From a virus (lineage: Duplodnaviria; Caudoviricetes), in the IMG/VR virus record IMGVR_UViG_3300028886_000035, positions 32,001-96,000 of that record: a DNA stretch of 64,000 nt. The stretch is one strand, 5' to 3'. Made by a program: the position numbers and the translations under genes. Below, one piece after another: positions 5,290-46,867 of the stretch (within the stretch, counting starts at the first letter, position 1; every line of letters begins with the position of its first letter). Under the pieces are notes generated by a model. That model was not told where the DNA came from and did not search any database. It saw only the letters and a list, made by a program, of their open reading frames with translations.

Positions 5290-5325
5290 AAAATACTCCA
5301 TAGTTTTATACTATGGAGTGTTTTT
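5290..5325 (-). terminator. Rho-independent terminator
   Basis: AAAATACTCCATAG-7nt-CTATGGAGTGTTTT. Confidence 0.75.
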
Positions 5326-5642: not shown

Positions 5643-5643
5643 C

Positions 5644-5868
5644 TTACATCAACTCTGTCGTTGTATAAGAAACATTATATTCACCCTTGGAAGTGAACTT
5701 AACCGTTGCCTTTTTCCCTGCACCATCATCAACTGTAATTTTTACAAGACCATGTGATACAAGAAAATTGAGTAGGTCGCCTTTTGCAAATTTTTCCCAT
5801 TGAAGATTATCCATTACTGCCGTTGTTGAATCTACTGCCTGTTCATTTGTTTTTAGTTCATCTGACAT
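5644..5868 (-). CDS. Small hypothetical protein
   Basis: Probable start MSDELK at 5868 after GAGG. Confidence 0.6.
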   Translation of the reverse strand: MSDELKTNEQAVDSTTAVMDNLQWEKFAKGDLLNFLVSHGLVKITVDDGAGKKATVKFTSKGEYNVSYTTTELM

Positions 5869-5928
5869 AATAAATACCTCTTTCAAAAAAACAATTTAAA
5901 CATTTATATTTATATTATACATATACAA

Positions 5929-7719
5929 TTAAATAATGTCAACACATTTATCTATTTTTTTTATTAGACCATCATCTTGACACAACATGCTTTTCAAAAA
6001 TTCATAATCATTTTTATTCAAATGACCACAAATCATTGAATATTTATATAATGCCCATATACCGATTTCTTTTTTAGTTTTATAAATTCTATAAAGTTCT
6101 TCAATATCATTTGTACATAATATATTATATAATTCAGATATATAATTTAAATCATTATCAACATCAACAACAACATTAAATTTATTTAGAATATTGTTGT
6201 TTTCTTTTTCAATATGCTTCTCTAATATATTTAATATGTTACTTCTATTAATATTTTTTTTAGGAATCAATTTATAATCAATTATATATTTAATACAATC
6301 ATCAGGAATTAATCCGTACAATTCATTATATTTTTGCAATTTTATCAATTTTCTTACGAATGTTCCATTTATATCAAAATTTTTATTTTTTAGTTTTTTT
6401 CTTGGTATACATATTACATTAATATCATATTGCCAAAACATAGTTTTAAGAAGATTGATATGTTGTGATGTTACATTATCATTTGTTTCTATTCCACATA
6501 AAAAATGTTTTATATTAAATTTTATAAAAATATTCCTTACTATATCCAACAAAGTATATGTATTGCTACCAATATAATTTTTATTTTTCCTTATGCATAA
6601 ATTGTTATATTCCTTCCAAAATGTTTGATAAGAAAAAATATCTGGTAGTGTAATTACAACAACGTTATTATATTTCTTAGTCCCAATTTTAACTAAACTC
6701 TCACAATTTTTTTTATCAAAAATTAAGTCTATACCACTTTGCATTAAAAATACAATGAATTTATCAAACAACTTTGACCCAACTGATACCAAATAATCAT
6801 GTCCTAATGTATATGGATTACAACTCATAACTGTTGCTCCTACATTTTCATAAGCATACAAATTCATATTATTTAATTCATTATATAACGTTTGTATTTT
6901 GGTATTATTTATTTTATTATTATTAATAAAATCATATACTTTTAATTTTAAATAAATTAAATTAGAAATTTCTTCATATGCAAATGATGTATAGTGTGCA
7001 AAATCAATAAATTTATTATATGTTGTATTAGAATTAAAATAATCGTTTAAATAAATTGTTGCATAGTTATTAACAAAATCATTAAAATATATTTTTGGTA
7101 TACAACATATTACAATATCATTATTTAATATTTTTGTGTTTATTACTCTATGAAACATATTTTCTATAGTTTCACCATTTGTAGCGAAATTATGAACACA
7201 AAAACTTTTAACTTTTTTCTGCAAATAGCTTGCCATCGTTTCTTCATCAGAAACATAATATCCTAATATAGTTGAATTACCAAACAAAAAAATGTTTTTA
7301 TTCACATTTTTTTGATTTACAGTTCTTCGTTCTCCGTTTTTTATATTCATTGTTTTAGATTGATAATCTTCAACACAAAAAAATGATGAGTGTTGTACGT
7401 TATCAGGATTATCATTTGATATTGACAATAAATATTCTTCATCATATTCACGAAAACAATTATAATATAATTTTTTATTATGTTGAACAACATCTATAAA
7501 TTTATCTTTTGAAAAATTCTTTAACACAACATTAAATTCATTGTTATATGAATATTTATTATTGTATACATCGTCAGAAAATATATTACTAATACACCTT
7601 TCAAAATTATTTTTATTTATTACGTCTTTAACACACGGTTGTTCTAATAAAAATAATTTCCCACCCCTTATAGAAACATATTTATCTATATCTTTTAAAA
7701 TTGTATTTATATTTCCCAT
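5929..7719 (-). CDS. Fusion of an SGNH/GDSL-like domain and a citrate-lyase-ligase (CitC)-like HIGH nucleotidyltransferase domain
   Basis: LFGNST and DFAH (SGNH blocks); GATVMSCNPYTLGHDYLV and INGTFVRK (CitC C-terminal signatures). Confidence 0.6.
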   Translation of the reverse strand: MGNINTILKDIDKYVSIRGGKLFLLEQPCVKDVINKNNFERCISNIFSDDVYNNKYSYNNEFNVVLKNFSKDKFIDVVQHNKKLYYNCFREYDEEYLLSISNDNPDNVQHSSFFCVEDYQSKTMNIKNGERRTVNQKNVNKNIFLFGNSTILGYYVSDEETMASYLQKKVKSFCVHNFATNGETIENMFHRVINTKILNNDIVICCIPKIYFNDFVNNYATIYLNDYFNSNTTYNKFIDFAHYTSFAYEEISNLIYLKLKVYDFINNNKINNTKIQTLYNELNNMNLYAYENVGATVMSCNPYTLGHDYLVSVGSKLFDKFIVFLMQSGIDLIFDKKNCESLVKIGTKKYNNVVVITLPDIFSYQTFWKEYNNLCIRKNKNYIGSNTYTLLDIVRNIFIKFNIKHFLCGIETNDNVTSQHINLLKTMFWQYDINVICIPRKKLKNKNFDINGTFVRKLIKLQKYNELYGLIPDDCIKYIIDYKLIPKKNINRSNILNILEKHIEKENNNILNKFNVVVDVDNDLNYISELYNILCTNDIEELYRIYKTKKEIGIWALYKYSMICGHLNKNDYEFLKSMLCQDDGLIKKIDKCVDII

Positions 7720-8540
7720 TCTTTTTCCTCCATTGAACTAATTTTCCAATCAACCAAGGAATGTTTATGGCAATATTTACAAAAATTTATTCCTTCATCT
7801 TTATTATTTAATTCTATTATCTTATCTAAATTATTTATATTAAAAATATTAACATAATCTTTTCCATAGACCACTTTATATTTTTTATAAAAATAAACAT
7901 TGTACTTATCAATATTAGCAGGAATAATACAGGGGAAATAATCTCCGTTCCAATTTAATTGAGCACATGGAAATACATTATAAAATTCATAATTATTTTT
8001 ATCTTCATTTTGCTTAATTATGTCAATATCACAAGTATAATTATTACAACATTTGTATTTATTATTCCCATCAATATTTAAATTTGTTTTATAAAATTTT
8101 TTGCCAACATAATATTTTGAACACAAAATTTCAATATTATGACAAAAACAGTAGTCCTTAATTCTATCATTTAATAATATTCCATTTGTTACAATTTTCA
8201 AATTAATATTTGGAAAAATTCTTTTTGAAATGTCTAGTATTTCAAAAAGTTTGCTATGTAATAATGGTTCTCCACCCATTAAACTAATTCCATAAAATTT
8301 TTTATCTTTAATAATAAACTTAATCCTATTTAATAAATTTTCAAAAACCTGAACACCTATTTCTTTGTGTTTATAAACTAATGGGGCAAAATGGTCGCAG
8401 TAAGCACAATTTAAATTACAATCTTCAACAATAGATATATCTATTTTTCCTAATCCATTTTTTCGATATGATAATTCATCTATATATTTTTTTATTGTAT
8501 GCATATCTTTTTTTACTAATAAATCTATCATACCAATCAA
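7707..8540 (-). CDS. Radical SAM protein (polysaccharide-locus type)
   Basis: CNLNCAYCDHFAPL, MGGEPLLH, VTNG, C-terminal FCKYC. Confidence 0.85.
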   Translation of the reverse strand: MIGMIDLLVKKDMHTIKKYIDELSYRKNGLGKIDISIVEDCNLNCAYCDHFAPLVYKHKEIGVQVFENLLNRIKFIIKDKKFYGISLMGGEPLLHSKLFEILDISKRIFPNINLKIVTNGILLNDRIKDYCFCHNIEILCSKYYVGKKFYKTNLNIDGNNKYKCCNNYTCDIDIIKQNEDKNNYEFYNVFPCAQLNWNGDYFPCIIPANIDKYNVYFYKKYKVVYGKDYVNIFNINNLDKIIELNNKDEGINFCKYCHKHSLVDWKISSMEEKEWEI

Positions 8541-8541
8541 C

Positions 8542-9405
8542 TCACCCCATGATTAATTTAAGAATTAAGTCATCTTTTTTCATAAATAATTTATTTTCTA
8601 TTTCATTTTTTGTTATATTTAAATTTTGCTCTACATTATCATCAATATTAAATAACGAAAGATAATCAGTTAAACCATCATCTTGTGACTTATTTTTCGG
8701 AGAATAATGTACTTTTTTACCTAACCACAAAAATTCAAATATCATTTTCCCTATATTTTCAGAATATATTCCTTTTGTTATTTCTCTCCACCGTTGATAT
8801 TCTAATTTATTATACATCATATATTTAAATTTAATTTCATCTGTATCTTCAGTATTTCTTACGCTTTCATTAAATACCTGATTTATTACTGGAAATTTAT
8901 TTTTTATAAATTCTAACCTTTCATTTGAAAATTTATGATAATATAAATAATAATTATTCCTATAAAAATTCATATTAATTCGATTACCTAAAACAAAAAC
9001 ATTTTCCATCTGTTCAATATAATTATTTTTTATATTGTTATTTGTAATGTAATCATAAAACATTAAGCCTGAATCCAAAACAATTATTTTATTATAACAA
9101 AATTTCAAACAAGATAAATATTTTGTAATAGAAAATGAAACAATTAAAACATTAAATTTATTATTTTTATAAAATTTATCAATATTATTTATATCTATAA
9201 ATTCACAATTTACTTTATTAAGAGGTAAAGATTTATATATAGTTTTTATGTATAACATTTGTTCTTGTAGCTTCAAGCAATCAATAAAAATATAACATTT
9301 TAAATTAACTACACCATATTTTTTTAAATTGAAATATAAATCAAACAAAGATGTGGTTATTCCATTCATTTGTGGATAAAACAATATAATCCCAACATTA
9401 TCCAT
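8542..9405 (-). CDS. Putative divergent GT-B glycosyltransferase (EX7E family member 1)
   Basis: ENIGKMIFE = E-x7-E; paralog of 13998 and 41406; lies in the glycosyltransferase cluster. Confidence 0.45.
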   Translation of the reverse strand: MDNVGIILFYPQMNGITTSLFDLYFNLKKYGVVNLKCYIFIDCLKLQEQMLYIKTIYKSLPLNKVNCEFIDINNIDKFYKNNKFNVLIVSFSITKYLSCLKFCYNKIIVLDSGLMFYDYITNNNIKNNYIEQMENVFVLGNRINMNFYRNNYYLYYHKFSNERLEFIKNKFPVINQVFNESVRNTEDTDEIKFKYMMYNKLEYQRWREITKGIYSENIGKMIFEFLWLGKKVHYSPKNKSQDDGLTDYLSLFNIDDNVEQNLNITKNEIENKLFMKKDDLILKLIMG

Positions 9406-10388
9406 TATTCTATCATACCTTTTATAATATTCTTTAAATTGTTTTCATCTTTTATTTTTAATATAATATTTCCTTTTTTTGTGACATAATTGTTATTTTT
9501 GATTTTAAAAAATAAATCATTTAAACATTCATCATATAAATTATTTATTATTACTAAATAGTTATAATTATAATATTTTTGTATTGCTTTTAAAACATTA
9601 ATCTTCTTTTCTATATCAAAATCAATAAAATACGATATATCAAAATGTAATTGGTTTACATCAATTTTTAAATCGGTTAAAACAATAGCTTTTCCTTTAT
9701 ACAACTGATAAAACTCATTATATAACATTCTCATATATTGAATTTGTGGATAAACATTCATTATTCTCTTAATATTTTTTCTAATAAAAAATTTTGCTAT
9801 TGGATAATCACAAAATTTATAATTTTTTGTTTTTGAAACATATCTAAAAATAATTTCATCATCTGCCATACGTTTATATCTTAAATCCCACCCACCAAAT
9901 TTATCATAACAAATTCTTTTATGAGCAAAAGAACAAGTGTCAACTTGATTATTTTCAAATATATCAACTTTAGAACAATCTAATCCTTTTTCTTCTATTT
10001 TACCATTATCATATACAATTAAATATTTTGTTGTAATAACTTCTGTATTTTTATCAATATAATTTAATAATTTTTCACAACAATATTTATCAACCTGGTC
10101 ATCATCATCAGGATAAATTACCCATTCACCGGTTGAATGTTCAACACCATAATTTCTTGCATAACAATGTCCATGATTTTTATCAAACCTATATAAAAAT
10201 ACTCTATCATCATTTAATTTATCAATAAAATTTTTCTTTAATTTATATTGATTTTTTTCGGAACAATCATCTACAACAATTAGTTCTATATTTTTATATG
10301 TTTGATTTACAATTGCTTGCACAGATAGCTTGAAATATTCATACCTATTAAAAGTTGGCATTATAAAAGAAAATTTTATTCCATCCAT
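9405..10388 (-). CDS. Glycosyltransferase family 2
   Basis: FSFIMPTFNR, VVDDCS, ARNYG, PDDDD, MADDE. Confidence 0.9.
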   Translation of the reverse strand: MDGIKFSFIMPTFNRYEYFKLSVQAIVNQTYKNIELIVVDDCSEKNQYKLKKNFIDKLNDDRVFLYRFDKNHGHCYARNYGVEHSTGEWVIYPDDDDQVDKYCCEKLLNYIDKNTEVITTKYLIVYDNGKIEEKGLDCSKVDIFENNQVDTCSFAHKRICYDKFGGWDLRYKRMADDEIIFRYVSKTKNYKFCDYPIAKFFIRKNIKRIMNVYPQIQYMRMLYNEFYQLYKGKAIVLTDLKIDVNQLHFDISYFIDFDIEKKINVLKAIQKYYNYNYLVIINNLYDECLNDLFFKIKNNNYVTKKGNIILKIKDENNLKNIIKGMIE

Positions 10389-11140
10389 TCGTTCTTATCC
10401 TTTTTAGATTTTTCCCACTCTATATTTTCAATTGGTTTTCTACAATATTTACAAAAATCGTTCTTGTGAGTATAAAAATTACAGATTGTCTCATCTGTAA
10501 CTGAATCATCATATATATCTAATATGTCACCATCTTTTACTACAAAATTTTCATTAAAATAGTCATTAAATATATCTATATATGCTTGTATTGGGCATAA
10601 AAACAATTTCCCATCTTTTAGTTGTATACTTTCCCAATGTATCATACAACAATCAAATTCTGTTTGTTTTGCTTCATGTGTTAATATATGTTTTCTTAAA
10701 ATTTTTGTATATTGTTTTTTATTAAAATCTTTTGTTCTAATTCCTTCTATTTCTAACAATTTGAATATACCTTTATAATCAATGTTTACAGGATATTTAG
10801 TTATTTCAACTAAAATATCATATTTTTTTATATACGGTAATAACTCATGTAATCTTTGTAACAAAAGTAATCCATTAGTCAAAAAAGAAATATTTGTATT
10901 AGGGCTAATCTCTTTTATAGCATCAAAAAATAAACATATATTTTTATGTAATAATGGCTCCCCACCAAATATCCTAACATTATCCACATTAATTTTATTA
11001 GTTAATTGTTTAAAATCTTTTTTAAATTCTTCAACATTAGCAAACCATGATTTTGACAATGGGGCAAAATGAGCACACCCTTTACAATTTAAATTACAAT
11101 GGTTTGTAATATGATATTCTATCATTCTAAGATGTTTCAT
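10376..11140 (-). CDS. Radical SAM protein (polysaccharide-locus type), paralog of 7707
   Basis: CNLNCKGCAHFAPL, FGGEPLLH, LTNG, FCKYC. Confidence 0.85.
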   Translation of the reverse strand: MKHLRMIEYHITNHCNLNCKGCAHFAPLSKSWFANVEEFKKDFKQLTNKINVDNVRIFGGEPLLHKNICLFFDAIKEISPNTNISFLTNGLLLLQRLHELLPYIKKYDILVEITKYPVNIDYKGIFKLLEIEGIRTKDFNKKQYTKILRKHILTHEAKQTEFDCCMIHWESIQLKDGKLFLCPIQAYIDIFNDYFNENFVVKDGDILDIYDDSVTDETICNFYTHKNDFCKYCRKPIENIEWEKSKKDKNEWME

Positions 11141-11145
11141 AAAAT

Positions 11146-12387
11146 TTAGACTCCCTTATCTAATATTTTTTTTATTAACGATATTTTACTTAAATTCTGC
11201 CAAGTTGTATCGTCTGTTCTAAAAATATTAATTTTTACATTTTCAATATTTACAATTTTATCTAATGGAAAATACATCCATATATTTTTAACTAATTCTT
11301 TATCAGCAATTGAATTTGCATTTTTATTAATAGCATATGAATTTTTATAAACATATAAGCAACCTGGATTTAATACACAATCTTTAATTTTATTTAAAAT
11401 TATTTTGCTATCTTCTCCAACGATAAGCCAATCAAAAGCATTTTTTATATCAAATATACTAGTTCCAATAGTAAACTGTTTTGGATTTATATTTTTATTA
11501 TTAGTTGATATACAAACCTCATCAACTTTTTTTAATTGCTCCATTTTTAATTCATTCCATTTATAATTATTTTTTTTATAATCTTCTTTAGTAATAAGTT
11601 TTACGTTGTTTAATTTAATATTATCATTTTTTAATAACATATTAAATACTGTTTTACTCATATATGTAATATTTTCATTATCCATCGCCATTGGCAATCC
11701 TAATCTTGCTCCACAAAATTGACACCAATACATTTGTTTTTGATAACTAGTTTCTTTCCACCAATCTTTTTGAACTTTGAATCCTGTATTACCATCATAT
11801 AGCATGTCCATAGCTCCAGCCATTTCACAAAAAAAAGCACCATGATTATTAATTACTGCTCCACAATCATTATTTACCCAACAATTTTTACTTTGCTTAA
11901 TAAATTCTTCATCAGATATTCCAAGGTCTTTATAATAAACCATAGTTGTAAAATGATTAGTATAATTACTATGGTCATTACATCTTAAAGAATGAAATGT
12001 ATCATCAATATCTTCAAAATAATCATAAAACTGCTTTGGAACACTTGTAAATAATCTTAGTTTACCATTATTATCAGGCATAGTATTTAAAGCATAATCA
12101 TATATATCACTAATTGGATAACGAAAAAATCCATACTTTTTTTTGTATTTCGTTTGTAAATATTTCATTATTTCTTTAAAAAATGGATGTAATAATGGTT
12201 CTCCACCCATAATTGATATTTGCCCATTCCAATTATCCAATGAATCTATTGCATTTTTTACATCATGCAAATTCATAAAATATGGATTATTATTCAATTG
12301 ACAAAATCTCATACAATTAGCACATTTATTTACACATGAATTTGTAATATCTATCAAAATAGATTTTTTATCTTTAATTAATTTCAT
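11146..12387 (-). CDS. Radical SAM protein
   Basis: CVNKCANC, MGGEPLLHP, CW...FFCE...WCQFCG auxiliary cysteines. Confidence 0.85.
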   Translation of the reverse strand: MKLIKDKKSILIDITNSCVNKCANCMRFCQLNNNPYFMNLHDVKNAIDSLDNWNGQISIMGGEPLLHPFFKEIMKYLQTKYKKKYGFFRYPISDIYDYALNTMPDNNGKLRLFTSVPKQFYDYFEDIDDTFHSLRCNDHSNYTNHFTTMVYYKDLGISDEEFIKQSKNCWVNNDCGAVINNHGAFFCEMAGAMDMLYDGNTGFKVQKDWWKETSYQKQMYWCQFCGARLGLPMAMDNENITYMSKTVFNMLLKNDNIKLNNVKLITKEDYKKNNYKWNELKMEQLKKVDEVCISTNNKNINPKQFTIGTSIFDIKNAFDWLIVGEDSKIILNKIKDCVLNPGCLYVYKNSYAINKNANSIADKELVKNIWMYFPLDKIVNIENVKINIFRTDDTTWQNLSKISLIKKILDKGV

Positions 12388-12392
12388 TATAA

Positions 12393-13982
12393 TTATTCCT
12401 TATACGAAACTTTATTTTCAATAATTAACCCATCTAATTTTTCTTGATACATTCTATACATATCACTAAAATAATTAAAAATTGGTAATCCACTATCATT
12501 AAACGATGTATTAATTAAAATTGCAACTCCTGTTTTGTTGCCAAACGCATATAACAAATTATATAACCATTTATCATCTTTTTCACTAACTGTTTGTATA
12601 CGAATTGTTCCATCTTTATGTATAGCACCTAACAAATTATCAATTTTAGGTTTAGCTAAAATATTCATATATGGAACTTGAATATTAATGTCAAAATATT
12701 CACTTATTTTATCATCAGGTACAATAATTCCGTATGGTCTATACCATTCTCTACCTTTAATGGTATTTAATCTATCATGCATTTCTTTATGAAATGGAGA
12801 AGCCAATATACTACGTCTACCTAACGCCCTAGCTCCCATTTCTATGTTACCACGACAAACGCCAACAATTTTATCATCATTTAATTTATCAACAAGCTCA
12901 TCTATATCGAATGTTTTAAATTTATTTTGTTTTCTCTCAAAAATTTCTTTTTCTTCCATATTATTCGTACAAGAATAATTATTTGATGAAATATATTTCA
13001 ATTCATCAGGTTTATAATGCAATAAATAATTTAAAACTGCACCGTATGACTGTCCTGTATCTGCAACTATAGGAGTATAATATACATGGTTAAACCAATT
13101 GGTTTTTTCAATCATATAATTTAGCATACAATTCATAGCGCAACCGCCCGAAAATACTAAATTATCACTTTCATGACGATATTGAGCCAATTCTCTCATT
13201 ATCCAATCAATCCATAATTTTTGCATTGTATATGCTAAATCATACTTATCAAATTCTTTACTTTGTTCATCCAAAAAATTATAAATATATGTTTCAATCG
13301 CTTCTTTATCTTCCCATATATTCCAATTTACATCTTTTATTGCTTTTTCAAAATCATCAATATTTTTAATCTGAACAAAATTATTAGATAAACCTGCATA
13401 AGCCATAAATTTTCCTTCTAAACCTTGTTCGTACTTATGACGCTTATCTAAAAAATAACAAGAAAGAACTTCATAATACATACCATAAGAAAATTTCTGT
13501 TCTTGATATAATTTTGTTAATTTATTATTTTGCCAATGATAGAAAGCATGATTTCCATCACCTTTACCATCTATAGATAAGCAAAGTGCGTCCTTTAAAT
13601 TATTTTCAATTATAGCAGGTAACACATGGTTTTCTTGATGATGGAATTTAATTACATCACAACGTTCCAACATTTTAACAAAATCATATGATTCTTTTTT
13701 CAAATACCCATCTTTAAATGTTTTATAATTCCAACAAACTACATCAAAATGGTCTACACCAAATTGTTCTTTGATAATTTTTTGACATTTATATAAATTA
13801 TTACGAAGTTTATCGTTATAAATTCTATCTATTTCAGGCATATAATCAATTATATCTGAATGAAAAGAAAAATGCTTCTTTTTTAAGAATTTTTCTAATT
13901 CAATATATTTTAATTCTTTTGTATCTGTATTATAATATGTAACATTATAGTCTTGATAACATTGTATTCCTAGAATTTTCAT
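12393..13982 (-). CDS. Carbamoyltransferase (NodU/CmcH/TobZ family)
   Basis: HHQENH, IDGKG, SGGCAMN, EMGARALGRRSIL, KGREWYRP, HKDGTIRIQTV, INTSFN. Confidence 0.92.
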   Translation of the reverse strand: MKILGIQCYQDYNVTYYNTDTKELKYIELEKFLKKKHFSFHSDIIDYMPEIDRIYNDKLRNNLYKCQKIIKEQFGVDHFDVVCWNYKTFKDGYLKKESYDFVKMLERCDVIKFHHQENHVLPAIIENNLKDALCLSIDGKGDGNHAFYHWQNNKLTKLYQEQKFSYGMYYEVLSCYFLDKRHKYEQGLEGKFMAYAGLSNNFVQIKNIDDFEKAIKDVNWNIWEDKEAIETYIYNFLDEQSKEFDKYDLAYTMQKLWIDWIMRELAQYRHESDNLVFSGGCAMNCMLNYMIEKTNWFNHVYYTPIVADTGQSYGAVLNYLLHYKPDELKYISSNNYSCTNNMEEKEIFERKQNKFKTFDIDELVDKLNDDKIVGVCRGNIEMGARALGRRSILASPFHKEMHDRLNTIKGREWYRPYGIIVPDDKISEYFDINIQVPYMNILAKPKIDNLLGAIHKDGTIRIQTVSEKDDKWLYNLLYAFGNKTGVAILINTSFNDSGLPIFNYFSDMYRMYQEKLDGLIIENKVSYKE

Positions 13983-13997
13983 ATATCCAACTTCTTT

Positions 13998-14909
13998 CTA
14001 AAACAATGATAAAAATTCATCATTTGATTGCATAAATAATTTTTCTTCAAAATATTGTTTTTCTTTGTTTGTAAAAATATATGTATTATTATCATCTAAA
14101 TCCAAATAATTCATATATTCACTTAAACCATCATAAAACTTTTTGTTTTTTGGTAAATACTGTGATTCTTTCCCCAATAAAATAAATTCAAACATTAATT
14201 TACCAATATTTTCGTAATATCTCGCACCATCATCTGTGTATAAATTATCATTATTTTTTTTATCATATCTATAATATAAATATTTTTTATAATCAAACGG
14301 TTTAATATTATTACCATTTATTTTATTTTTATAATAATCTTCTGCAATTAAAATATCATTTTTTGTTGTAGATAACTTCTTTAATTTTTCTATTCGTTCT
14401 TTAGAAAATTTCATATACCAAATAAAATTATCTTCCACAAATTTAGAATTATATTGATTGCAAACTGTCAAAACTTTGTGTTCCTTTATATAATTTATTT
14501 CATCATTGTATATTGTTAAATCTTTTTGTTGTTTTTTATATATAAATGCAGGATATAATAAAATCTCTTGTTTTGCAGATTGTTTAAAACGATTATTTTT
14601 TTGCAATTTGATTATTTCTGAACTTATGATATTTATATCACCTTTTATATTATAAGTCATTTTTTTATGTTTAATGATACTTGTATTTCCATACGTATCC
14701 ATGTATTTTCCAACCCATAAAGGCAAATAACAAATACCATCACCAAATGCTAAATATTCCCTAAATCGTCTTAACAAATTTTTATCTTCGTATAAAATAA
14801 TAAATCTTACATCATGATTTGTAAACTTTCTTAAATTATAAAATGTATCTTCAAATGATGTATAAGCTCCATTTAATTCATAAAACAAATAAATTAAGTT
14901 AATTTTCAT
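13998..14909 (-). CDS. Putative divergent GT-B glycosyltransferase (EX7E family member 2)
   Basis: ENIGKLMFE; NGAYTS, KFSKER and DGLSEY shared with 8542 and 41406. Confidence 0.45.
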   Translation of the reverse strand: MKINLIYLFYELNGAYTSFEDTFYNLRKFTNHDVRFIILYEDKNLLRRFREYLAFGDGICYLPLWVGKYMDTYGNTSIIKHKKMTYNIKGDINIISSEIIKLQKNNRFKQSAKQEILLYPAFIYKKQQKDLTIYNDEINYIKEHKVLTVCNQYNSKFVEDNFIWYMKFSKERIEKLKKLSTTKNDILIAEDYYKNKINGNNIKPFDYKKYLYYRYDKKNNDNLYTDDGARYYENIGKLMFEFILLGKESQYLPKNKKFYDGLSEYMNYLDLDDNNTYIFTNKEKQYFEEKLFMQSNDEFLSLF

Positions 14910-16044
14910 CGTCTACACTCTCAATACATTCATTGATTTTTTTCATAATATTATTTATATCATATTTTTTTGCTTCGTCTAAACAATTTTGTCTCATATT
15001 AGATTTGCCAATCTTCATAATTTTATCCATATTTTCATCAAAATTATTATCGATTAACCATCCATTATATCCATCTTTAATAAGGTAATTCATTACTTTA
15101 CATTCTTTAAACCCAACTATGGGTACACCATACGATAATGCTTCTATAATAACTGTCGGCAATCCTTCATATTTTGATGGAACAACCAAAACATCTGCAT
15201 TTTTGTAAAATGCACTTACATTTTCTTGATAACCGTAATAATGTATATTTGGATAATTATATTTATCCATATCTATATATCCAAAACCTTTATAACTATA
15301 TCCGACTACATCACATTCATAATCTGTATTTTTAACCCAATCTAACAATATATGTGTTCTTTTTGTATCACTATTAATACGCCCAACATATAATATTTTA
15401 TTTCTATTAGATTTAATATCAATATTATTCGGGATATCTATGCAATTATAAAAGACAACCGACTTTTCTTTATATTTTTCACTTATATATTGCGGTAATA
15501 AAAAAGCCAATATATCACAATTTTTTAATACTAATTCATATAAACTTTTTTCATCTTTTAAAATTTCTTGTTTACGAATATAATCCATAGCACGAATATG
15601 AGTAATAGTATCCATCATAAACTGCGGTTCATTATGAAAAAACATAATAATTGGTATTTTAGAAACTTTTGATATAATTGTCCAAAATAATGCATCTTGT
15701 CCACAACTAGCATTACAAAATATACATTTAGGTTTTATATTTCTAATTTTAACTACATAATCATTAATTAGTCCACGAGATAAATATGTATTTATATTTG
15801 TATGTATTGTAACATTATCAATATCAACACATTTTTCTCCTGAAATAAATAAATGGACATTATATTTTTTGCTCAATTCATTGCAAATTTTTAATGTATA
15901 TCTTTCTGCTCCCCACAAATAATTATGTGTTTCTCTTTTACCCATACTATTTGTAACGACTACTGTATTATTGTCACCTATATATGTATCAAATTTATTT
16001 CCTATCATAAATTGCAATAGAAACATATCATTTTTTGTATTCAC
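14899..16044 (-). CDS. Glycosyltransferase family 4 (GT-B)
   Basis: WGAER, LYVGRI, PSKYEGLPTVIIEALSYGVP, IKDGYNG. Confidence 0.9.
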   Translation of the reverse strand: MNTKNDMFLLQFMIGNKFDTYIGDNNTVVVTNSMGKRETHNYLWGAERYTLKICNELSKKYNVHLFISGEKCVDIDNVTIHTNINTYLSRGLINDYVVKIRNIKPKCIFCNASCGQDALFWTIISKVSKIPIIMFFHNEPQFMMDTITHIRAMDYIRKQEILKDEKSLYELVLKNCDILAFLLPQYISEKYKEKSVVFYNCIDIPNNIDIKSNRNKILYVGRINSDTKRTHILLDWVKNTDYECDVVGYSYKGFGYIDMDKYNYPNIHYYGYQENVSAFYKNADVLVVPSKYEGLPTVIIEALSYGVPIVGFKECKVMNYLIKDGYNGWLIDNNFDENMDKIMKIGKSNMRQNCLDEAKKYDINNIMKKINECIESVDDEN

Positions 16045-16867
16045 GGCAAGCCATCCTCAAAAGTTTAGTTTCGTATTCTTTATTTATTCTATCTTCTGCA
16101 TACATCTTCCAAATTTCACCAAATAAAGAACTTTTCTTCCACGGTTTAGGATTACTAGCAAAATGTAAAATTCGTATATTATCAGATTTTATTTTTTCAC
16201 CATAAATACGAATTAATTCATTAAACCTATATTTGCTATATGTATTAGCTAAAAAATTATATCCATAACTAATATATTTTATTTTCCCTAAAAATGCTTT
16301 ATTTAAAACATCTTGCTCCCATAAAAAACCTTTATTTTCTTTTAGTTCTTTATTCAATTCGTCATAATAAACATACATTGTTTTATCTTTATCTATTATA
16401 CTTTCTCTAATCTTTTTTAAATTAAAATACACATTACCTGCATTAAAATATGAAAATCCATTTATTTTGTCTCTTACTGCTCCACAAAAATAATCTGATA
16501 TATTGATATTAAATATATCAGATATATCTTTTATAACAATAGTATCTGAATCAATATGAAATACTGTATCACAATCTAATAAATTATGTAACAATAATTT
16601 GTAATATACAACACCTGCATTATCATCTGATACAAAAATATTTTTATCTATATAAATTGGTATTATATGAAAATCATCACTATCTAAACTTTTAATATCC
16701 TGTATATCTTTAAATTCTATACATAATAAATAAACATCGTAACAAATGTCACGATGTTTATTGAATTTCAATGATTTCATTGAAATATATGTTTGAAATA
16801 GATAAGATTGATTTGTCATATAAACTATATTAAAACAGTTTTCCTGACAACTCATAATAAGCCTCAC
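16028..16867 (-). CDS. Glycosyltransferase family 8
   Basis: HIDSDTIV, YFNAG, EQDVLN, LHFASNPKPW. Confidence 0.88.
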   Translation of the reverse strand: MRLIMSCQENCFNIVYMTNQSYLFQTYISMKSLKFNKHRDICYDVYLLCIEFKDIQDIKSLDSDDFHIIPIYIDKNIFVSDDNAGVVYYKLLLHNLLDCDTVFHIDSDTIVIKDISDIFNINISDYFCGAVRDKINGFSYFNAGNVYFNLKKIRESIIDKDKTMYVYYDELNKELKENKGFLWEQDVLNKAFLGKIKYISYGYNFLANTYSKYRFNELIRIYGEKIKSDNIRILHFASNPKPWKKSSLFGEIWKMYAEDRINKEYETKLLRMACREYKK

Positions 16868-17465
16868 TAATTTCTTGTTTTGTCTTTGCAGCTTTAATCT
16901 TTTCTTTATATTCTTTATATTTCATATAAACTGCATCAATAGCATTAAAATCATCAAGAGAATCAAGATATTCTGAAAGTTTTTCTAGTGTTTCTGTATC
17001 GCCACTATTAATTACTTCCAAATATTTTTCTTCCCTATTTTCATCTGTAATAAAGAAACCTTTAGCTTCAAGATAATGGTTTAATTTAAAGAAATGATAT
17101 AATTCAAAATTAGAAATCATTAATTGATTACTAATTAATTCATTAATCATTCTTAATGTTTTTTCTTTATAAGCATCTAAAACATCTTCGTCTGTTTCTT
17201 CTTGTAATTGTTCTACCTTAATTAAATCAGATACATCATATACTTTACTAGCATCTATTTCTCCATCAATATAAATAAGCATACGTGGTTCACGATGTTC
17301 CAAATCTAATTCTTGAACAACATAAGTATATGCTTCTGGTGTTAACCAAACATATTCTTTATTACTTAGCAAAACTTGTTCCATATCTAATTTCTGAAAT
17401 GGTTCAATTAAAAAATTTTTACCATCTTGTTCAAGAGTTTTACAAAAAAAATTCATTGTCGCCAT
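16830..17465 (-). CDS. Hypothetical protein coupled to the Cys-rich/rSAM module
   Basis: 211 aa, helical C-terminus FFITDENREEKYLEVI; overlaps both neighbours. Confidence 0.65.
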   Translation of the reverse strand: MATMNFFCKTLEQDGKNFLIEPFQKLDMEQVLLSNKEYVWLTPEAYTYVVQELDLEHREPRMLIYIDGEIDASKVYDVSDLIKVEQLQEETDEDVLDAYKEKTLRMINELISNQLMISNFELYHFFKLNHYLEAKGFFITDENREEKYLEVINSGDTETLEKLSEYLDSLDDFNAIDAVYMKYKEYKEKIKAAKTKQEISEAYYELSGKLF

Positions 17466-17731
17466 TATTCTGTCTCCTTATTAATTTCTTCAATAATACT
17501 ATCAATATTTTTTTCTTCTTTTTCTTCTTTTAATTGTACGTTTTCATCATAGTCTAATCCATATTTTCTTCCCATACTTATCATAGACATAGATATAATA
17601 CTATTAATAGCTTGATATGCAACCTTATCTAACGGATAAATCATTTGACGAGCCATTTCTAAAAAATTTCGTTCCGTCAACATAAATTCCAAAATTTTCT
17701 GTTTTTCTTCTTTTGTTTGTTCTTTTATCAA
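17465..17731 (-). CDS. Small hypothetical protein
   Basis: 88 aa, TTG start after AGGA. Confidence 0.55.
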   Translation of the reverse strand: MIKEQTKEEKQKILEFMLTERNFLEMARQMIYPLDKVAYQAINSIISMSMISMGRKYGLDYDENVQLKEEKEEKNIDSIIEEINKETE

Positions 17732-17752
17732 AATACTATATCCTTTCTTATA

Positions 17753-19138
17753 TTATACAATATATTGATATGAATAGCACCAACCACGAACTTTAACAAC
17801 ATAACAAGCACAGGAAGCTTCATGTCCAAAACAAGAGCAATAATTACAATTGCAAACACATAAACTAGAAATTAAATTGATAGCTTTCATAAAATATGTT
17901 GCTACATTCGTACCTGCAATATTTAATGTATATTCACCTCTTGTAATTCCTAAAGGATTCATACAAAATCTTGCTACTGTAATATTTGATTCTTGTGAAA
18001 AATTCCTTGTTTCTATCTGTTTTATTGGATTACCATTAACATCTTTCATAATGTTACCGTTTTTATCTTTAACCACGGTTTCTCTTGTACCAATACAATT
18101 TTGAACAAACATTGGGTCAATATCACCTGCTTCAGATATTCCACCTAATAAAGCAGTTCTCCATCTGTACACATAAGTATATAGGTCTGAAGGTATATAT
18201 CCAAATACATCAAATGCAGGTTTTCTAATGCCATCATCATAAGTTACATACTTAACATAATCTATATTGCCATATGGTCTGCGTTTAGGTTGATATATAA
18301 CACCCCCACCTAAATTATATATTGGTTGCGTTGAATATCCATAAATATCACTTGTTAGTAGATTGTCTGGTTCATGTGCAGAAACAACAGTATTGCCTTC
18401 AATATTGTTTATTTCATCTTGCTGTATTCCTGAATGTCGATATACATATTCTCTCATATCTGAACCTGTAAACCAGTTATTCCCTTTATGTGAACCAACA
18501 TTTATTTCAGAAGCATTAGGATTATAATCTAATTGAGCGAAATCAGGTTCATTCTTTGCAGATGTATTAACGGTAGTTGAAGAACCACCACTACTATAAG
18601 TTATAATACTGTCACTTTTATCTACTGACAATGGGAACGTTTGTATAGGCAATCTATCATTAACAGAACTTGATGCTTTAGCTGGTAACTCAATTTTAAA
18701 TAATGTCAATATATCAGAAAAAATTTTTTCTATATCACTTTGGCGTATTTTGTCACCACTAGCCATATATCCACTATGCCCATTTTGGGAATCCAATTGA
18801 GCACTCATTGGTTGCAAAGTTCCTGGTCCATTCATAAAATTATTTCTTAACATAAATTCTTGGCGAATTTTAATTAGCAAAGCATTCCATTCATCATTTG
18901 TAATTGGATTATCATCAAAATTTTCTCTCAATCTAGTTGAACGCCTTTGATAGCTATGATTTGCTAAATATGATTGTGAACTACTATCGAATGTTGACCA
19001 CAAACTAGTGGAAAATTCATAGTCTTTATCACCACCTGGTGTACCATATGGTTTGCATATAGGAAATTTTCCTGTTGGGTCAGGAACATATTGATAAAAT
19101 CCGTCGCCTTTAAATCTATTTGCTATTTGTACTGACAT
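17753..19138 (-). CDS. Large protein with Cys-rich C-terminus (CVCNCNYCSC...SCAC...WC); candidate rSAM/SPASM substrate, possibly a virion fibre
   Basis: 8 Cys in the last ~35 residues; G/S/N-rich body; directly downstream of two SPASM rSAMs. Confidence 0.6.
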   Translation of the reverse strand: MSVQIANRFKGDGFYQYVPDPTGKFPICKPYGTPGGDKDYEFSTSLWSTFDSSSQSYLANHSYQRRSTRLRENFDDNPITNDEWNALLIKIRQEFMLRNNFMNGPGTLQPMSAQLDSQNGHSGYMASGDKIRQSDIEKIFSDILTLFKIELPAKASSSVNDRLPIQTFPLSVDKSDSIITYSSGGSSTTVNTSAKNEPDFAQLDYNPNASEINVGSHKGNNWFTGSDMREYVYRHSGIQQDEINNIEGNTVVSAHEPDNLLTSDIYGYSTQPIYNLGGGVIYQPKRRPYGNIDYVKYVTYDDGIRKPAFDVFGYIPSDLYTYVYRWRTALLGGISEAGDIDPMFVQNCIGTRETVVKDKNGNIMKDVNGNPIKQIETRNFSQESNITVARFCMNPLGITRGEYTLNIAGTNVATYFMKAINLISSLCVCNCNYCSCFGHEASCACYVVKVRGWCYSYQYIV

Positions 19139-19198
19139 ATCTATATCAACTCCATTATATATTTATTTTCAAAAAATTGATTATCTATTTAATAAATA

Positions 19199-20275
19199 TT
19201 AATGAGTCAATTTATAATATGCTTTAATATAATCAGAGATTTTATTATATAATTTACAAACATCTTCTTTATTTGAATTATTCCATTGTTCTTTTTTACC
19301 ATTGCTATTTAAAGCATTACATCTAAAACAAAATATAGATTCACAATTAGAACATTTTTCATTTTTTTTAAACATATTGTTTGCAACTAAATAATTACAA
19401 TCTACCTTATGCAAAAAATTATCTTCAAAAATATTCGTATATACTAAATCTTGTTTCCCATACAAACAACCGTGACAATAAGATACATCACCATTCAAAT
19501 CTATTTGAAATGAATTATATCCACCTGAACAATCCGCATTACTATTTGGCTGGTCAAACCATAAAAATCCTGTTTGACCAAACTCTTTATTTTTCAAGAA
19601 ATAACGGATTAATTTAATAAACTGATTATTCATTTTATTATAATCCACATTGCCTACATTTAATGTATCTGGTGTTAACGCAAATGGAATTTTTTTCTTT
19701 AATTCTTTATTTAATTTCTCAAAATTCAAATATTGTTCAAATAAATGTTCTTCTAAATCATTAATTGTACACGTAGATTTTGTGCCAACATAAAAATCAT
19801 TTTCATCAAACCATTTTATTGCTTCTCGTACCATTTTATCTGTTTCTTCCGCACTATGATTTAATTGTATACGTTGATTATTTTCTATATTATGATAATC
19901 ATATGATACTTGAATCTGTAATCTTCTTCCTACGTGTTCTTTTATTTCTAATAAATCATTTTTATATGCTTGCACTAACGAACCATTTGTATACATGAAA
20001 AAGCTAACATCTTTATTATCATAAAATTCTGATATTATTTTTTTAATTTTATCAAAATAAACTGTTGGTTCTCCACCCCAAAATTCAATTCTTAGTTCAT
20101 TAACTTCTGCTAATTCATGTAATACTTCTATAATTCTGTCAAAAACATTTTGTGGAATACTTTCGTTTTTTTCAACTGCTCCATTTTTAACCTCAAAGCA
20201 ATATTTACAACGGAAATTACAACCGCTCCCCATATTAATAGAAACTGACATAGGTGTTTTCATAATTATTATCAT
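19199..20275 (-). CDS. Radical SAM/SPASM-domain protein
   Basis: CNFRCKYC, FWGGEP, YTNG; CSGG...YCHGC...CSNCESIFCFRC. Confidence 0.88.
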   Translation of the reverse strand: MIIIMKTPMSVSINMGSGCNFRCKYCFEVKNGAVEKNESIPQNVFDRIIEVLHELAEVNELRIEFWGGEPTVYFDKIKKIISEFYDNKDVSFFMYTNGSLVQAYKNDLLEIKEHVGRRLQIQVSYDYHNIENNQRIQLNHSAEETDKMVREAIKWFDENDFYVGTKSTCTINDLEEHLFEQYLNFEKLNKELKKKIPFALTPDTLNVGNVDYNKMNNQFIKLIRYFLKNKEFGQTGFLWFDQPNSNADCSGGYNSFQIDLNGDVSYCHGCLYGKQDLVYTNIFEDNFLHKVDCNYLVANNMFKKNEKCSNCESIFCFRCNALNSNGKKEQWNNSNKEDVCKLYNKISDYIKAYYKLTH

Positions 20276-46850: not shown

Positions 46851-46867
46851 AACTAATCAACCTCCAA

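Follow-up and report, generated by a model that had tools for sequence, protein, structure and literature searches.

A conserved gene cluster in a relative of Bacillus phage G, predicted to build a carbamoylated, radical-SAM-edited sugar chain, and a candidate protein acceptor encoded beside it

The ten-gene cluster and its enzymes

The 281 kb genome of a cattle-rumen phage related to Bacillus phage G, whose 98% completeness is the basis for the genome-wide absences given below, carries ten open reading frames on the minus strand at 5929-16867 of the analysed window (a stretch of 64,000 nucleotides, to which coordinates refer unless the genome is named). The original prediction had described ten abutting, extremely AT-rich genes here. 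Their coordinates were recovered unchanged, with junctions of -38 to +15 nt, that is, abutting or overlapping, and a GC content of 20-25% as against 28% genome-wide. The enzyme families that it had proposed, namely GT8, GT4, carbamoyltransferase, three radical SAM (rSAM) enzymes and GT2, are borne out by Pfam matches, counted only above curated cut-offs; an SGNH-like/nucleotidyltransferase fusion and two compact GT-B paralogues complete the set. We found no published description of this cluster.

The first enzyme gene encodes a retaining GT-A glycosyltransferase of the GT8 family (16028..16867, 279 aa; PF01501, 73 bits), with 3tzt, GlyE (5gvv), LgtC and the Skp1 galactosyltransferase as relatives in the PDB, and sequence reading places a DSD motif at residues 106-108 and H..NPKPW near its C-terminus. 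It is followed by a retaining GT-B glycosyltransferase of the GT4 family (14899..16044, 381 aa; Glycos_transf_1, 86 bits), with E293..E301 as its EX7E motif, by the first compact GT-B protein (13998..14909, 303 aa) and by an O-carbamoyltransferase of the NodU/CmcH/TobZ type (12393..13982, 529 aa; Carbam_trans_N and Carbam_trans_C, 55 and 159 bits). The latter has NovN, GdmN and TobZ as its PDB relatives (E 1e-27 to 1e-20), and displays HHxxxH at 113-118 together with GARALGRRS. Further along the run, the inverting GT-A glycosyltransferase of the GT2 family (9405..10388, 327 aa; PF00535, 108 bits) shows DD and DDD motifs, and occurs in all relatives with an identity of only 31-54%.

All three rSAM proteins were matched by Pfam Radical_SAM and carry the CxxxCxxC motif. 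The 413-aa member (11146..12387; C18xxxC22xxC25) belongs to the variable set, being found in the relatives L004, L008 and L019 and missing in L003. The 254-aa member (10376..11140; also Fer4_12; C15xxxC19xxC22) is part of the core; it has an additional CxxC at the C-terminus, its gene adjoins or lies near that of the carbamoyltransferase in all relatives, and its bacterial or other homologues sit in sugar loci (L013, L014, L020). The 277-aa member (7707..8540; C41xxxC45xxC48) is paired, across a 1-nt gap, with the second compact GT-B paralogue (8542..9405), and the pair is likewise adjacent in L004. The last gene (5929..7719, 596 aa) had been predicted to encode an SGNH-nucleotidyltransferase fusion. 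Its HIGH-type nucleotidyltransferase domain is secure (residues 294-479, of the citrate-lyase-ligase kind; Citrate_ly_lig, PF08218, 76 bits), and the assignment of its N-terminal SGNH/GDSL-like half is weaker (NCBIfam SGNH match, E 4e-6; an Atlas lead of 0.90 to SGNH clusters). The motifs GNS and NPYTLGH stand at 147 and 301, and a distant homologue lies in a polysaccharide locus of a MAG.

None of the ten proteins has a hydrophobic or membrane segment (maximum KD19 1.58), and no priming transferase (PF02397 or PF00953) was matched anywhere in the genome. From the gene content, the orphan GT-B proteins and the bacterial homologues in sugar loci, the cluster is well supported as a conserved set of soluble enzymes predicted to build a carbamoylated, rSAM-edited sugar chain, the product that the original prediction had proposed.

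A small family of compact GT-B proteins

The products of 13998-14909 and 8542-9405, previously recognized only as EX7E proteins, have no match in Pfam or NCBIfam. They are paralogues of ~27% identity that align over their full length and have an invariant EX7E block in common; the second, of 287 aa, is a member of the variable set, and the family HMM matches it with 289 bits. The AF2 model of the 303-aa protein (pLDDT 90.8) was used in a VIA search, in which the top rows were all GT-B, with Z 14.4-12 to the GT4 type. It aligns with 6eji (Z 14.4, rmsd 4.9 A, 255 residues), BshA 6n1x (rmsd 4.2 A, 252 residues), the T4 alpha-glucosyltransferase (Z 12.9, rmsd 4.3 A, 249 aligned) and AviGT4 (Z 12.7, rmsd 4.0 A, 233 aligned); the T4 beta-glucosyltransferase is among the nearest named Atlas clusters, as a lead only, with a score below 0.9. 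By model and alignment, both Pfam-less paralogues are thus compact, GT4-like glycosyltransferases of the GT-B fold and constitute a small new family.

Among 1.84 billion proteins this family has 144 representatives. An alignment of 69 members shows D21, R214, E241, Y251, D260 and G261 to be invariant, and E233 to be nearly so (at least 90%). A third member in the window (41406..42560, minus strand, 384 aa; family HMM, 243 bits) is encoded downstream of the major capsid gene. In all four foreign contexts sampled (L010, L012, L021, L022), genes of the family adjoin rSAM genes, and DegT or epimerase genes are often near.

The Cys-tailed module, the hairpin and the sugar-supply genes

As had been noted, the cluster follows the gene of a Cys-tailed protein (17753..19138, minus strand, 461 aa), and two small reading frames intervene. 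The C-terminal Cys-rich tail of this protein is near-invariant and is preserved in 11 homologues, with a variable middle region that accommodates indels; its structural model is poor (pLDDT 55), and no relatives were detected among 50,697 phage records. The intervening frames, p88 and p211 (16830..17731, minus strand), encode acidic proteins that bridge the Cys-tailed gene and GT8. They abut one another (-1 nt), p211 shares 38 nt with the start of GT8, and both are kept in all relatives at 32-83% identity; p211 matches phrog_25260, which has no assigned function. Upstream of the Cys-tailed gene lie two overlapping rSAM genes (19199..21315, minus strand; phrog_1802, E 1e-33), also kept in relatives, whose products have Cys-rich C-terminal halves and are presumed to be protein maturases.

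The order rSAM-rSAM-Cys-tailed protein-p88-p211-GT8-GT4-GT-B-carbamoyltransferase-rSAM is common to six distinct related jumbo phages (this phage, L003, L004/6, L005, L008/9 and L019, a 400-kb scaffold), with the Cys-tailed gene upstream of the enzymes in all relatives. The distal tailoring genes have been exchanged among these phages, which have two to six rSAMs. In comparison with the closest relative, L003, the carbamoyltransferase and p80 are 87% and 99% identical, whereas the rSAM and GT2 are only 51% and 31% identical, and four genes are missing.

A terminator scan revealed a hairpin of 15-16 bp followed by a U-rich tract (16729..16762, minus strand) ~105 nt inside the GT8 reading frame (MFE -18 kcal/mol, z -3.58). 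It is kept in the six phages, and five of its 16 pairs show compensatory changes on both sides, although they lie within coding sequence. It is a putative attenuator separating the Cys-tail module from the genes of the enzymes. Assembled contigs of RNA libraries from four studies give a weak signal in the same direction, depths being 25-56 in long contigs over 17091-20227, which take in the Cys-tailed gene, versus 3-8 over the enzyme genes and dropping 2- to 9-fold across the hairpin bin in four rumen libraries, values in which DNA carry-over may have a part. At the other end, a perfect TTGACA-17-TATAAT promoter (5914..5942, minus strand; 12/12 matches), one of only four strong ones of its type within the genome's first 100 kb, opens the next unit (p80-p105) and delimits the operon at its downstream end; a terminator follows it (5319-5295, minus strand; terminator scan).

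Additional sugar genes are embedded, along with the third GT-B member, beside the capsid gene (46005-46850, 80% identical to phage G gp27) and decoration genes. One encodes a TviB-like NDP-sugar 6-dehydrogenase (43248..44546, minus strand; three Pfam domains; NCBIfam NDP-sugDHase 308 bits, TviB 280 bits), which likely supplies a uronic-acid donor. The other, within the head-gene module, encodes a sugar aminotransferase of the DegT/PseC/DesI type (48499..49569, minus strand; Pfam 252 bits; NCBIfam PseC 168 and DesI 104 bits).

The acceptor of the sugar chain

Virion proteins had been proposed as the target because of a structural-gene context and the lack of base hydroxymethylase genes in the window. 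The latter observation now applies to the entire 98%-complete genome, which has no match to the thymidylate-synthase-type hydroxymethylase (PF00303). The former holds only loosely: the cluster is flanked by ORFans, it is separated from the capsid gene by ~29 kb that include a replicative helicase, and the sheath gene lies ~9 kb downstream. The virion-protein target thus stands as a candidate with a weaker contextual argument than was stated, on account of these flanks and distances, of published DNA-glycosylating clusters that are likewise found among structural genes (bioRxiv 10.1101/2023.12.21.572611), and of a C5 DNA methyltransferase and CmoA-like gene pair (genome 19579-21187, the methyltransferase at 19579-20442) ~17 kb downstream of the cluster, which starts at genome 37929. 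We bring three new arguments, namely the invariant coupling to the Cys-tailed module, the conserved attenuator-like hairpin, and the absence of the DNA-handle enzymes from an 86%-complete relative in which the cluster is entire; because of these, decoration of a phage protein rather than DNA appears most likely.

Were DNA the substrate, which we consider quite unlikely, the glycosyltransferases would act on a modified base, and the carbamoyltransferase and rSAMs would tailor the DNA-bound sugar, conferring protection from nucleases. Phage glycosyltransferase clusters do place mono- to trisaccharides on 5hmC (bioRxiv 10.1101/2023.12.21.572611), arabinosylated 5-hydroxycytosine exists (PMC13326640), and a phage carbamoyltransferase uses 5hmC as a substrate (PMC8670742). 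However, in the MetaGPA study the carbamoyltransferases with group-1 glycosyltransferases as neighbours came from contigs whose cytosines were unmodified (PMC8670742). The methyltransferase is distant, and neither it nor a thymidylate-synthase homologue was found in the 86%-complete relative; the latter was also not found in three other cluster-bearing records (35%, 35% and 6% complete). The 98%-complete genome has no TGT/DpdA and no detected hydroxylase, the Tet_JBP search being without a match, as was its positive control. The alignment of the compact GT-B model with the T4 alpha-glucosyltransferase might favour a DNA substrate, but reflects the general GT-B fold; BshA, PimA and HepE outscore the T4 enzyme.

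Editing of the host envelope is an unlikely though slightly more probable reading, under which the enzymes would modify undecaprenyl- or lipid-linked precursors of capsule, teichoic acid or S-layer glycan at the inner membrane face, for export by a host flippase and ligase, so as to block superinfection or keep progeny off debris. In LPS and capsule synthesis, too, peripheral GT4, GT8 and GT2 enzymes lack membrane segments, so a host lipid-linked acceptor is conceivable. The closest characterized relatives of the GT4, GT2 and GT8 proteins are LPS, capsule and teichuronic-acid enzymes, the rSAM and the fusion have bacterial homologues in surface-polysaccharide loci, the cassette-type variability resembles that of O-antigen loci, and a jumbo-phage survey so interpreted polymorphic glycosyltransferase and carbamoyltransferase clusters of jumbo cyanophages (PMC7824862). 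Against this, there is neither a priming transferase in the genome nor a membrane protein in the cluster; no PHROGs lysogeny match occurs among the scanned genes around it, and seroconversion would be unusual for such phages. The invariant, overlapping linkage to the Cys-tailed module, the attenuator and the sugar genes beside the capsid gene would also be left unexplained. In our view it is improbable that the cluster makes a free, carbamoylated small molecule, be it an oligosaccharide or a nucleoside-sugar metabolite, that acts on host or competitors and resembles in its chemistry the aminoglycosides, orthosomycins or Nod factors. The rSAM editing of sugars is best known from antibiotic pathways (DesII, BtrN, AprD4, AviX12), which offers a precedent, as do the closest solved carbamoyltransferases, all tailoring secondary metabolites, and the structural match to AviGT4; a sugar-derived secondary metabolite has been proposed for a cyanophage carbamoyltransferase cluster (PMC7824862). 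But five transferases stand here without an aglycone pathway, and neither the cluster nor the genes next to it include a scaffold-forming enzyme (cyclitol synthase, PKS/NRPS), an exporter or a resistance gene; this reading, too, leaves the link to the Cys-tailed protein unexplained.

We return to the reading in which we place about even confidence, an operon that combines a precursor with its tailoring enzymes and serves to glycosylate a phage protein, for which the Cys-tailed protein is the first candidate. The ten genes would specify a cytoplasmic, membrane-independent assembly line, in which the GT8, GT4, GT2 and two compact GT-B enzymes transfer sugars to a soluble acceptor from nucleotide-sugar donors, supplied partly by the host and partly by the TviB-like dehydrogenase and PseC/DesI-like aminotransferase of the phage. 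The TobZ/NodU-type enzyme would O-carbamoylate a hydroxyl group of a sugar at the expense of carbamoyl phosphate and ATP, and the three rSAMs, enzymes of a kind that travels paired with the compact GT-B family, could edit the sugars by deoxygenation, epimerization, C-methylation or oxidation, probably one rSAM per added sugar; the fusion may add an acyl or phospho-linked substituent. The co-transcribed Cys-tailed protein would be the acceptor, presumably cross-linked by the two upstream rSAMs and located in the virion, and exchange of the distal cassettes among related phages would give it a serotype-like diversity. The hairpin terminator inside the start of GT8 would, after the manner of RiPP operons, permit bulk synthesis of the precursor alongside a small supply of the enzymes.

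The phage and its ten-gene cluster

The record (281,186 bp, 98% complete, 28% GC), of which the window covers bases 32001-96000, represents a phage from bovine gut or rumen samples, which recurs in at least 13 studies and is nearly complete in several bovine runs. Its kinship lies with Bacillus phage G (497 kb), with which this smaller rumen phage (281 kb) shares a collinear gene order: the portal (54182-55924), major head (46005-46850) and decoration (46868-47386) proteins are 67.5%, 80% and 48% identical to gp14, gp27 and gp26 of phage G, respectively, and the terminase, the helicase and others also match phage G. The capsid genes (46005-47386, minus strand) form a 38% GC island in the 28% GC genome. 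Nothing in the first 84 kb of phage G corresponds to window bases 1-24,100, and megablast of the 11-kb cluster region against 50,697 phage records gave no match. Searches of the same records with tblastn were equally negative for a 910-aa protein encoded upstream of the cluster, for the 461-aa Cys-tailed protein (17753-19138, minus strand) and for the compact GT-B protein of the cluster; no cultured relative carries any of these.

The minus strand from 16867 to 5929 encodes ten consecutive ORFs with junctions of -38 to +15 nt, as expected from the original prediction of ten abutting genes. In order of transcription these specify a GT8 glycosyltransferase, a GT4 glycosyltransferase (Glycos_transf_1), a 303-aa protein without a match, a carbamoyltransferase of the NodU/CmcH/TobZ type, radical SAM enzymes of 413 and 254 aa, a GT2 glycosyltransferase, a 287-aa protein without a match, a 277-aa radical SAM enzyme and a 596-aa fusion protein; eight of the ten exceed curated Pfam cut-offs. 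The GT8 protein scores 73 bits with PF01501 (cut-off 24.3, profile positions 1-251), contains a D106-S-D108 (DxD) motif and a C-terminal H..NPKPW motif, and has GT8 matches in the PDB too. The GT4 protein (14899-16044) scores 86 bits with Glycos_transf_1 (cut-off 26.4) and displays an EX7E motif, E293-x7-E301, while the DD/DDD motifs of the GT2 protein are intact. The Kae1-like N-terminal and YrdC-like C-terminal domains of the carbamoyltransferase are recovered with 55 and 159 bits (cut-offs 24 and 27), along with the motifs HHQENH at residues 113-118 (HHxxxH), DGKGD at 138-142 and GARALGRRS. The roles of the HHQENH and DGKGD residues, including the metal-binding histidines, we presume to be those in the TobZ literature. 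The protein falls outside NodU proper, with 119 bits against the 1000-bit cut-off of the NF041651 equivalog. The three radical SAM enzymes score 30.5, 49.4 and 43.7 bits with PF04055 (cut-off 29.5) and have CxxxCxxC at residues 18, 15 and 41; none reaches an NCBIfam equivalog cut-off. Residues 294-479 of the fusion protein constitute a citrate-lyase-ligase nucleotidyltransferase domain (PF08218, 76 bits) with an intact NPYTLGH motif, and its N-terminal half is SGNH-like at the level of a lead only (NCBIfam E 4e-6; Atlas 0.90). It falls short of citrate lyase ligase itself, a full-length equivalog (TIGR00124) with an acetyltransferase-like N-terminal part and an adenylyltransferase domain at the C-terminus: this model gives 49 bits against a cut-off of 262, and the C-terminal domain alone matches. 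Thus, assignment from sequence is firm for the families and not for the exact reactions, the NCBIfam matches of the cluster proteins being only generic and all far under equivalog cut-offs.

The two proteins without a match (13998-14909 and 8542-9405) are paralogues with a common invariant E-NIGK-x-FEF block. As neither has a Pfam or NCBIfam match at E 0.01, and as a PDB sequence search with a 69-sequence profile found none either (its rows, such as RFC subunits, were at chance level and were dismissed), they constitute a separate small family, of which a profile search of 1.84 billion representatives recovered only 144 members, nearly all of 250-330 aa. An AlphaFold2 model from the 69-sequence alignment (pLDDT 90.8) gave only weak GT-B rows in Foldseek (E at least 0.002), and a wide search with VIA-align decided the fold, the best 40 rows being all GT-B transferases. 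These include 6eji (Z 14.4, rmsd 4.9 Å, 255 aligned), BshA 6n1x (Z 14.4, rmsd 4.2 Å, 252 aligned), HepE (Z 14.1, rmsd 5.0 Å, 246 aligned) and PimA (Z 13.8). The EX7E block by which both proteins had originally been singled out lies in the C-terminal domain and is kept across the 69 sequences, E241 being invariant and E233 nearly so (at least 90%). On this model, both are GT-B, GT4-like glycosyltransferases, which brings the transferases of the cluster to five. With five glycosyltransferases, a carbamoyltransferase and three radical SAM enzymes, and with homologues in sugar loci, the expectation of a carbamoylated, radical SAM-modified glycan was sustained, and we consider it very probable that the cluster is an operon of soluble enzymes that assemble and tailor a glycan.

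A third member of the compact GT-B family (41406-42560) is inserted beside the capsid and decoration genes, together with a TviB-like NDP-sugar dehydrogenase and a PseC/DesI-like aminotransferase. At 49566-50241 (minus strand), immediately upstream of the DegT/PseC-like aminotransferase gene, two ORFs overlap: one of 103 aa that contains just the N-terminal radical SAM motif region, and one of 147 aa whose match is confined to the C-terminal third of NAD-dependent 4,6-dehydratases/epimerases. They resemble gene fragments, the outcome of a frameshift, or a dehydratase-aminotransferase-radical SAM trio in decay. Another gene (36559-37788, minus strand) encodes a 409-aa protein in which a nucleoside 2-deoxyribosyltransferase-like domain is fused to a Nudix-like region and which may manipulate a nucleotide pool or a signalling nucleotide.

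Cassette exchange and the radical SAM-GT-B pairing

A common gene order is seen in six distinct related phages, namely this one, L003, L004/L006, L005, L008/L009 and L019 (a 400-kb scaffold): two radical SAM genes, the Cys-tailed gene, the small linking genes p88 and p211, GT8, GT4, a compact GT-B, the carbamoyltransferase and a small radical SAM gene. The genes p80-p105-p147 and onward follow the cluster in each, and the content between the carbamoyltransferase and p80 differs. This interval holds only two radical SAM genes and one GT2 in L003, and five and six radical SAM genes in L008 and L019, respectively, along with the fusion gene and GT2; the second GT-B paralogue is confined to this phage and L004/L006. 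Relative to L003, the closest relative, the carbamoyltransferase and p80 are 87% and 99% identical, whereas between them a radical SAM protein is 51% and the GT2 31% identical and four genes are absent, a difference that indicates exchange of a cassette flanked by conserved anchors. With about 20% GC, the swapped segment is also where AT-richness peaks. The anchor formed by p80 and p105 (5295-5942, minus strand) is a mini-operon with a perfect TTGACA-17-TATAAT promoter (5942-5914) and a clean terminator (5319-5295), and p80 is far closer to its L003 counterpart than are its neighbours (70-87%). In L019, a fragment of an IS605 OrfB/TnpB-like gene (18727-19335) lies between the p105 and p147 homologues, just past the cluster.

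In every foreign context sampled (L010, L012, L022 and L021, the last from a bacterial MAG), the compact GT-B adjoins small radical SAM genes, often with DegT aminotransferase or epimerase/dehydratase genes beside it. L010 has about ten radical SAM genes and two compact GT-B members inside 15 kb. The uncultured contigs L010 (1-15013) and L022 (1-12877) carry arrays of about five to ten small radical SAM genes each, interleaved with compact GT-B members, a methyltransferase and DegT, as in a much larger version of the module in the cluster. Likewise, homologues of the 254-aa radical SAM enzyme occur in three sugar loci (L013, L014 and L020), the last of which also encodes a carbamoyltransferase, DegT, an epimerase and a GFO/IDH/MocA oxidoreductase, and a distant homologue of the fusion protein is found in a MAG polysaccharide locus. 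These contexts support radical chemistry directed at sugars. The placement of DegT beside radical SAM genes can be likened to DesI/DesII, the deoxygenation pair of desosamine synthesis. The recurrent pairing of the new compact GT-B family with small radical SAM enzymes points to an uncharacterised glycan chemistry, for which deoxygenation, epimerisation or methylation by radical enzymes acting on oligosaccharides or nucleotide sugars are candidates.

Transcriptional layout and the acceptor of the glycan

The Cys-tailed protein combines a near-invariant 35-residue Cys/Tyr-rich tail with a variable, indel-rich middle rich in Ser, Thr, Asn and Gly. Between the two closest phages it is 57% identical, compared with 74-87% for its neighbours, which fits an exposed protein under diversifying pressure. 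Its structure model is poor (pLDDT 55, 11 sequences), and its matches in BFVD and the PDB stayed at chance level (best Z 6.8, rmsd 4.5 Å, 159 aligned, helical), lending no support to its being a fibre, decoration or other virion protein. Of the other proteins encoded nearby, p183 (4168-4719, minus strand; 26% Ser+Thr, pI 9.3) has a long C-terminal Ser/Thr/Lys-rich low-complexity tail and p272 (3305-4123, minus strand) is very acidic and of low complexity with KKVAKK ends; these are possible internal, scaffold or DNA-binding proteins of the virion, or possible additional glycosylation substrates.

No strong host-type promoter was found in the run 21315-5929, in which p211 and GT8 share 38 nt. 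Looking for a common late-promoter motif by k-mers recovered only the host-type TTGACA class and an early-cassette motif, and nothing that dates expression of the operon. About 105 nt inside GT8 (16729-16762) lies a hairpin of 15-16 bp with a U-rich tract behind it (MFE -18 kcal/mol, z -3.58). It is kept in all six phages, with both-sided changes preserving 5 of 16 pairs, three of them consecutive in L008, in a coding stretch whose encoded residues vary. Four bovine metatranscriptome libraries, each from a different study, have long contigs of depth 25-56 over about 17091-20227, an interval that runs from part of p211 through p88 and the Cys-tailed gene to the second upstream radical SAM gene (19199-20275); depth is 3-10 over the enzyme genes and the 910-aa gene, and binned depth drops 2- to 9-fold across the hairpin. 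Such uneven depth is not expected from DNA carry-over. Because these data are assembled contigs, which lack strand, ends and true levels and in which missing long contigs do not equate to silence, they are a weak hint of attenuation. By analogy, the layout would be that of many RiPP operons: an abundant substrate gene, a leaky terminator and the modifying enzymes.

The best-supported reading, to which we give an even chance, is that the acceptor is a phage protein, in the first place the Cys-tailed protein and in the second capsid-associated proteins. The original prediction had favoured virion proteins, in part from a structural-gene context. That description is loosely right, the downstream genes encoding small ORFans, two proteins with CarboxypepD_reg/Ig-like domains and a 721-aa protein that weakly matches a tail-sheath C-domain. 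As a strong argument for a protein target it fails, as the flanks are ORFans, the sheath match is about 9 kb away, and DNA-modifying glycosyltransferase clusters have also been reported among structural genes (bioRxiv 10.1101/2023.12.21.572611). The other ground, absence of a base hydroxymethylase from the window, extends to the whole 98%-complete genome as far as thymidylate-synthase homologues are concerned: PF00303 is found neither there nor in the records of four relatives (control positive in 10 of 14 genomes), so that the co-occurring dCMP hydroxymethylase that marks a 5-hydroxymethylcytosine carbamoyltransferase system is lacking. The recommended look for base-modification genes elsewhere likewise recovered no TGT/DpdA in the genome, a single sub-threshold match (12 bits) inside a radical SAM gene being treated as spurious, but did uncover a C5 DNA methyltransferase gene (PF00145, 221 bits) directly beside a CmoA-like carboxy-SAM synthase gene (TIGR00740, E 4e-44, below cut-off) at G000:C1:19579-21187, some 10.8 kb ahead of the window. 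In systems of the methyltransferase-5mYOX(TET)-glycosyltransferase type, a C5 methyltransferase and a TET/JBP dioxygenase cluster with the transferases. Here the methyltransferase lies about 17 kb downstream of the cluster, and a relative that is 86% complete and carries the whole cluster lacks both it and a thymidylate-synthase homologue. A Tet_JBP search of the genome gave zero matches and is uninformative, the control genomes being equally silent. In the MetaGPA survey, carbamoyltransferases lie next to thymidylate synthases on cytosine-modified contigs and next to group-1 glycosyltransferases on unmodified ones (PMC8670742). Together these points lower, without removing, the case for DNA hypermodification, which we regard as improbable.

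Editing of the host envelope, the reading given to glycosyltransferase clusters of jumbo phages (PMC7824862), appears unlikely here. Membrane segments are absent from all ten cluster proteins, in which no 19-residue stretch exceeds a hydrophobicity of 1.6, and the genome encodes no priming phosphoglycosyl transferase of PF02397 or PF00953 (controls positive), which together argue against a self-contained, undecaprenyl-phosphate-linked envelope-polysaccharide system. That the product is a free metabolite we consider very improbable.

If the acceptor is indeed a phage protein, we tentatively put forward a fuller scheme, on balance doubtful as a whole, of a "glyco-RiPP-like" phage system acting on a full-size protein. 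Two SPASM-type radical SAM enzymes would first cross-link the abundant 461-aa Cys-tailed protein, on which an oligosaccharide would then be placed, possibly in the variable middle or even on the tail cysteines or tyrosines. A compact GT-B would add each sugar and its own small radical SAM partner would edit that sugar; the attenuator would fix the substrate-to-enzyme ratio, and exchange of radical SAM/glycosyltransferase cassettes would generate serotype-like variation of the virion surface. Were this true, the radical SAM-compact GT-B pair would be a general, undescribed module for radical glycan editing, deployed in other uncultured phages as arrays of about ten radical SAM genes (L010, L022).

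Significance and comparison with known systems

A full-text literature search found no paper on a phage cluster joining glycosyltransferases, a carbamoyltransferase and radical SAM enzymes, and the combination of five of the first with one of the second and several of the third is found in none of the described systems. The known targets of glycosylation by phage enzymes are DNA bases and, more recently, virion proteins too. If a virion protein bears the glycan, these jumbo phages, which are common in rumen and gut, have a variable coat of sugars that could affect host recognition, adherence to mucus or fibre, and immune or protease exposure. The cluster is also a defined, clonable enzyme set, and its conserved coding-region hairpin offers a testable case of putative attenuation in a phage, placed between the gene of a substrate and those of the enzymes that modify it.

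Virion protein glycosylation in mycobacteriophages is credited to Freeman et al. (Cell Host Microbe 31:1216, 2023; cited in PMC12582341). In these phages, soluble phage-encoded glycosyltransferases reportedly decorate phage proteins in the cytoplasm, with capsid and tail-tube C-termini as acceptors and with virion-surface glycans that vary between phages. The present system likewise has soluble, phage-encoded glycosyltransferases that vary between phages, but its acceptor is inferred and its host clade and lineage, that of the Bacillus phage G relatives, differ. To our knowledge, the mycobacteriophage systems have two to a few transferases and no radical SAM enzyme, carbamoyltransferase or nucleotidyltransferase fusion. 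Giant viruses of the Mimivirus lineages decorate a virion surface protein by means of fibril glycosylation clusters with their own nucleotide-sugar enzymes. Like the present cluster, these are virus-encoded, lineage-variable multi-gene glycan pathways; they differ in belonging to eukaryotic viruses and in their enzyme families, and we know of no radical SAM enzymes among them.

In RiPP operons such as nisA-nisB, the precursor gene is followed by a leaky terminator. The likeness lies in the succession of a substrate gene that is highly represented, then a conserved hairpin with a U-tract, then modification enzymes and, as with radical SAM/SPASM maturases, in radical SAM enzymes that adjoin a Cys-rich C-terminal tail. 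In contrast, the substrate here is a 461-aa protein rather than a short peptide, leader, protease and exporter are lacking, ten sugar-pathway genes follow, and the hairpin sits inside the reading frame of the first enzyme. The carbamoyltransferase shares with TobZ, NodU, NovN and GdmN both Pfam domains and the HHxxxH and GxRALGxRS motifs (best PDB matches E 1e-27 to 1e-20), but is only about 25-30% identical to them.

Phage DNA glycosylation encompasses the T4 alpha- and beta-glucosyltransferases, the methyltransferase-5mYOX-glycosyltransferase clusters (bioRxiv 10.1101/2023.12.21.572611) and arabinosyl-5-hydroxycytosine in RB69/DLP3 (PMC13326640). As would be the case here, several soluble, envelope-derived glycosyltransferases build oligosaccharides on a soluble macromolecule, and these polymorphic clusters are sometimes placed among structural genes. 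They are defined by a hydroxyl-handle enzyme, either a thymidylate-synthase homologue or a methyltransferase with a TET-like dioxygenase, and no such enzyme was found in or beside our cluster (the Tet_JBP controls being silent). Finally, the 5-hydroxymethylcytosine carbamoyltransferase of uncultured phages (PMC8670742) belongs to the same two-domain NodU/TobZ-type family and is likewise phage-borne, but whereas that enzyme co-occurs with a thymidylate-synthase homologue, the partners of the carbamoyltransferase here are glycosyltransferases.
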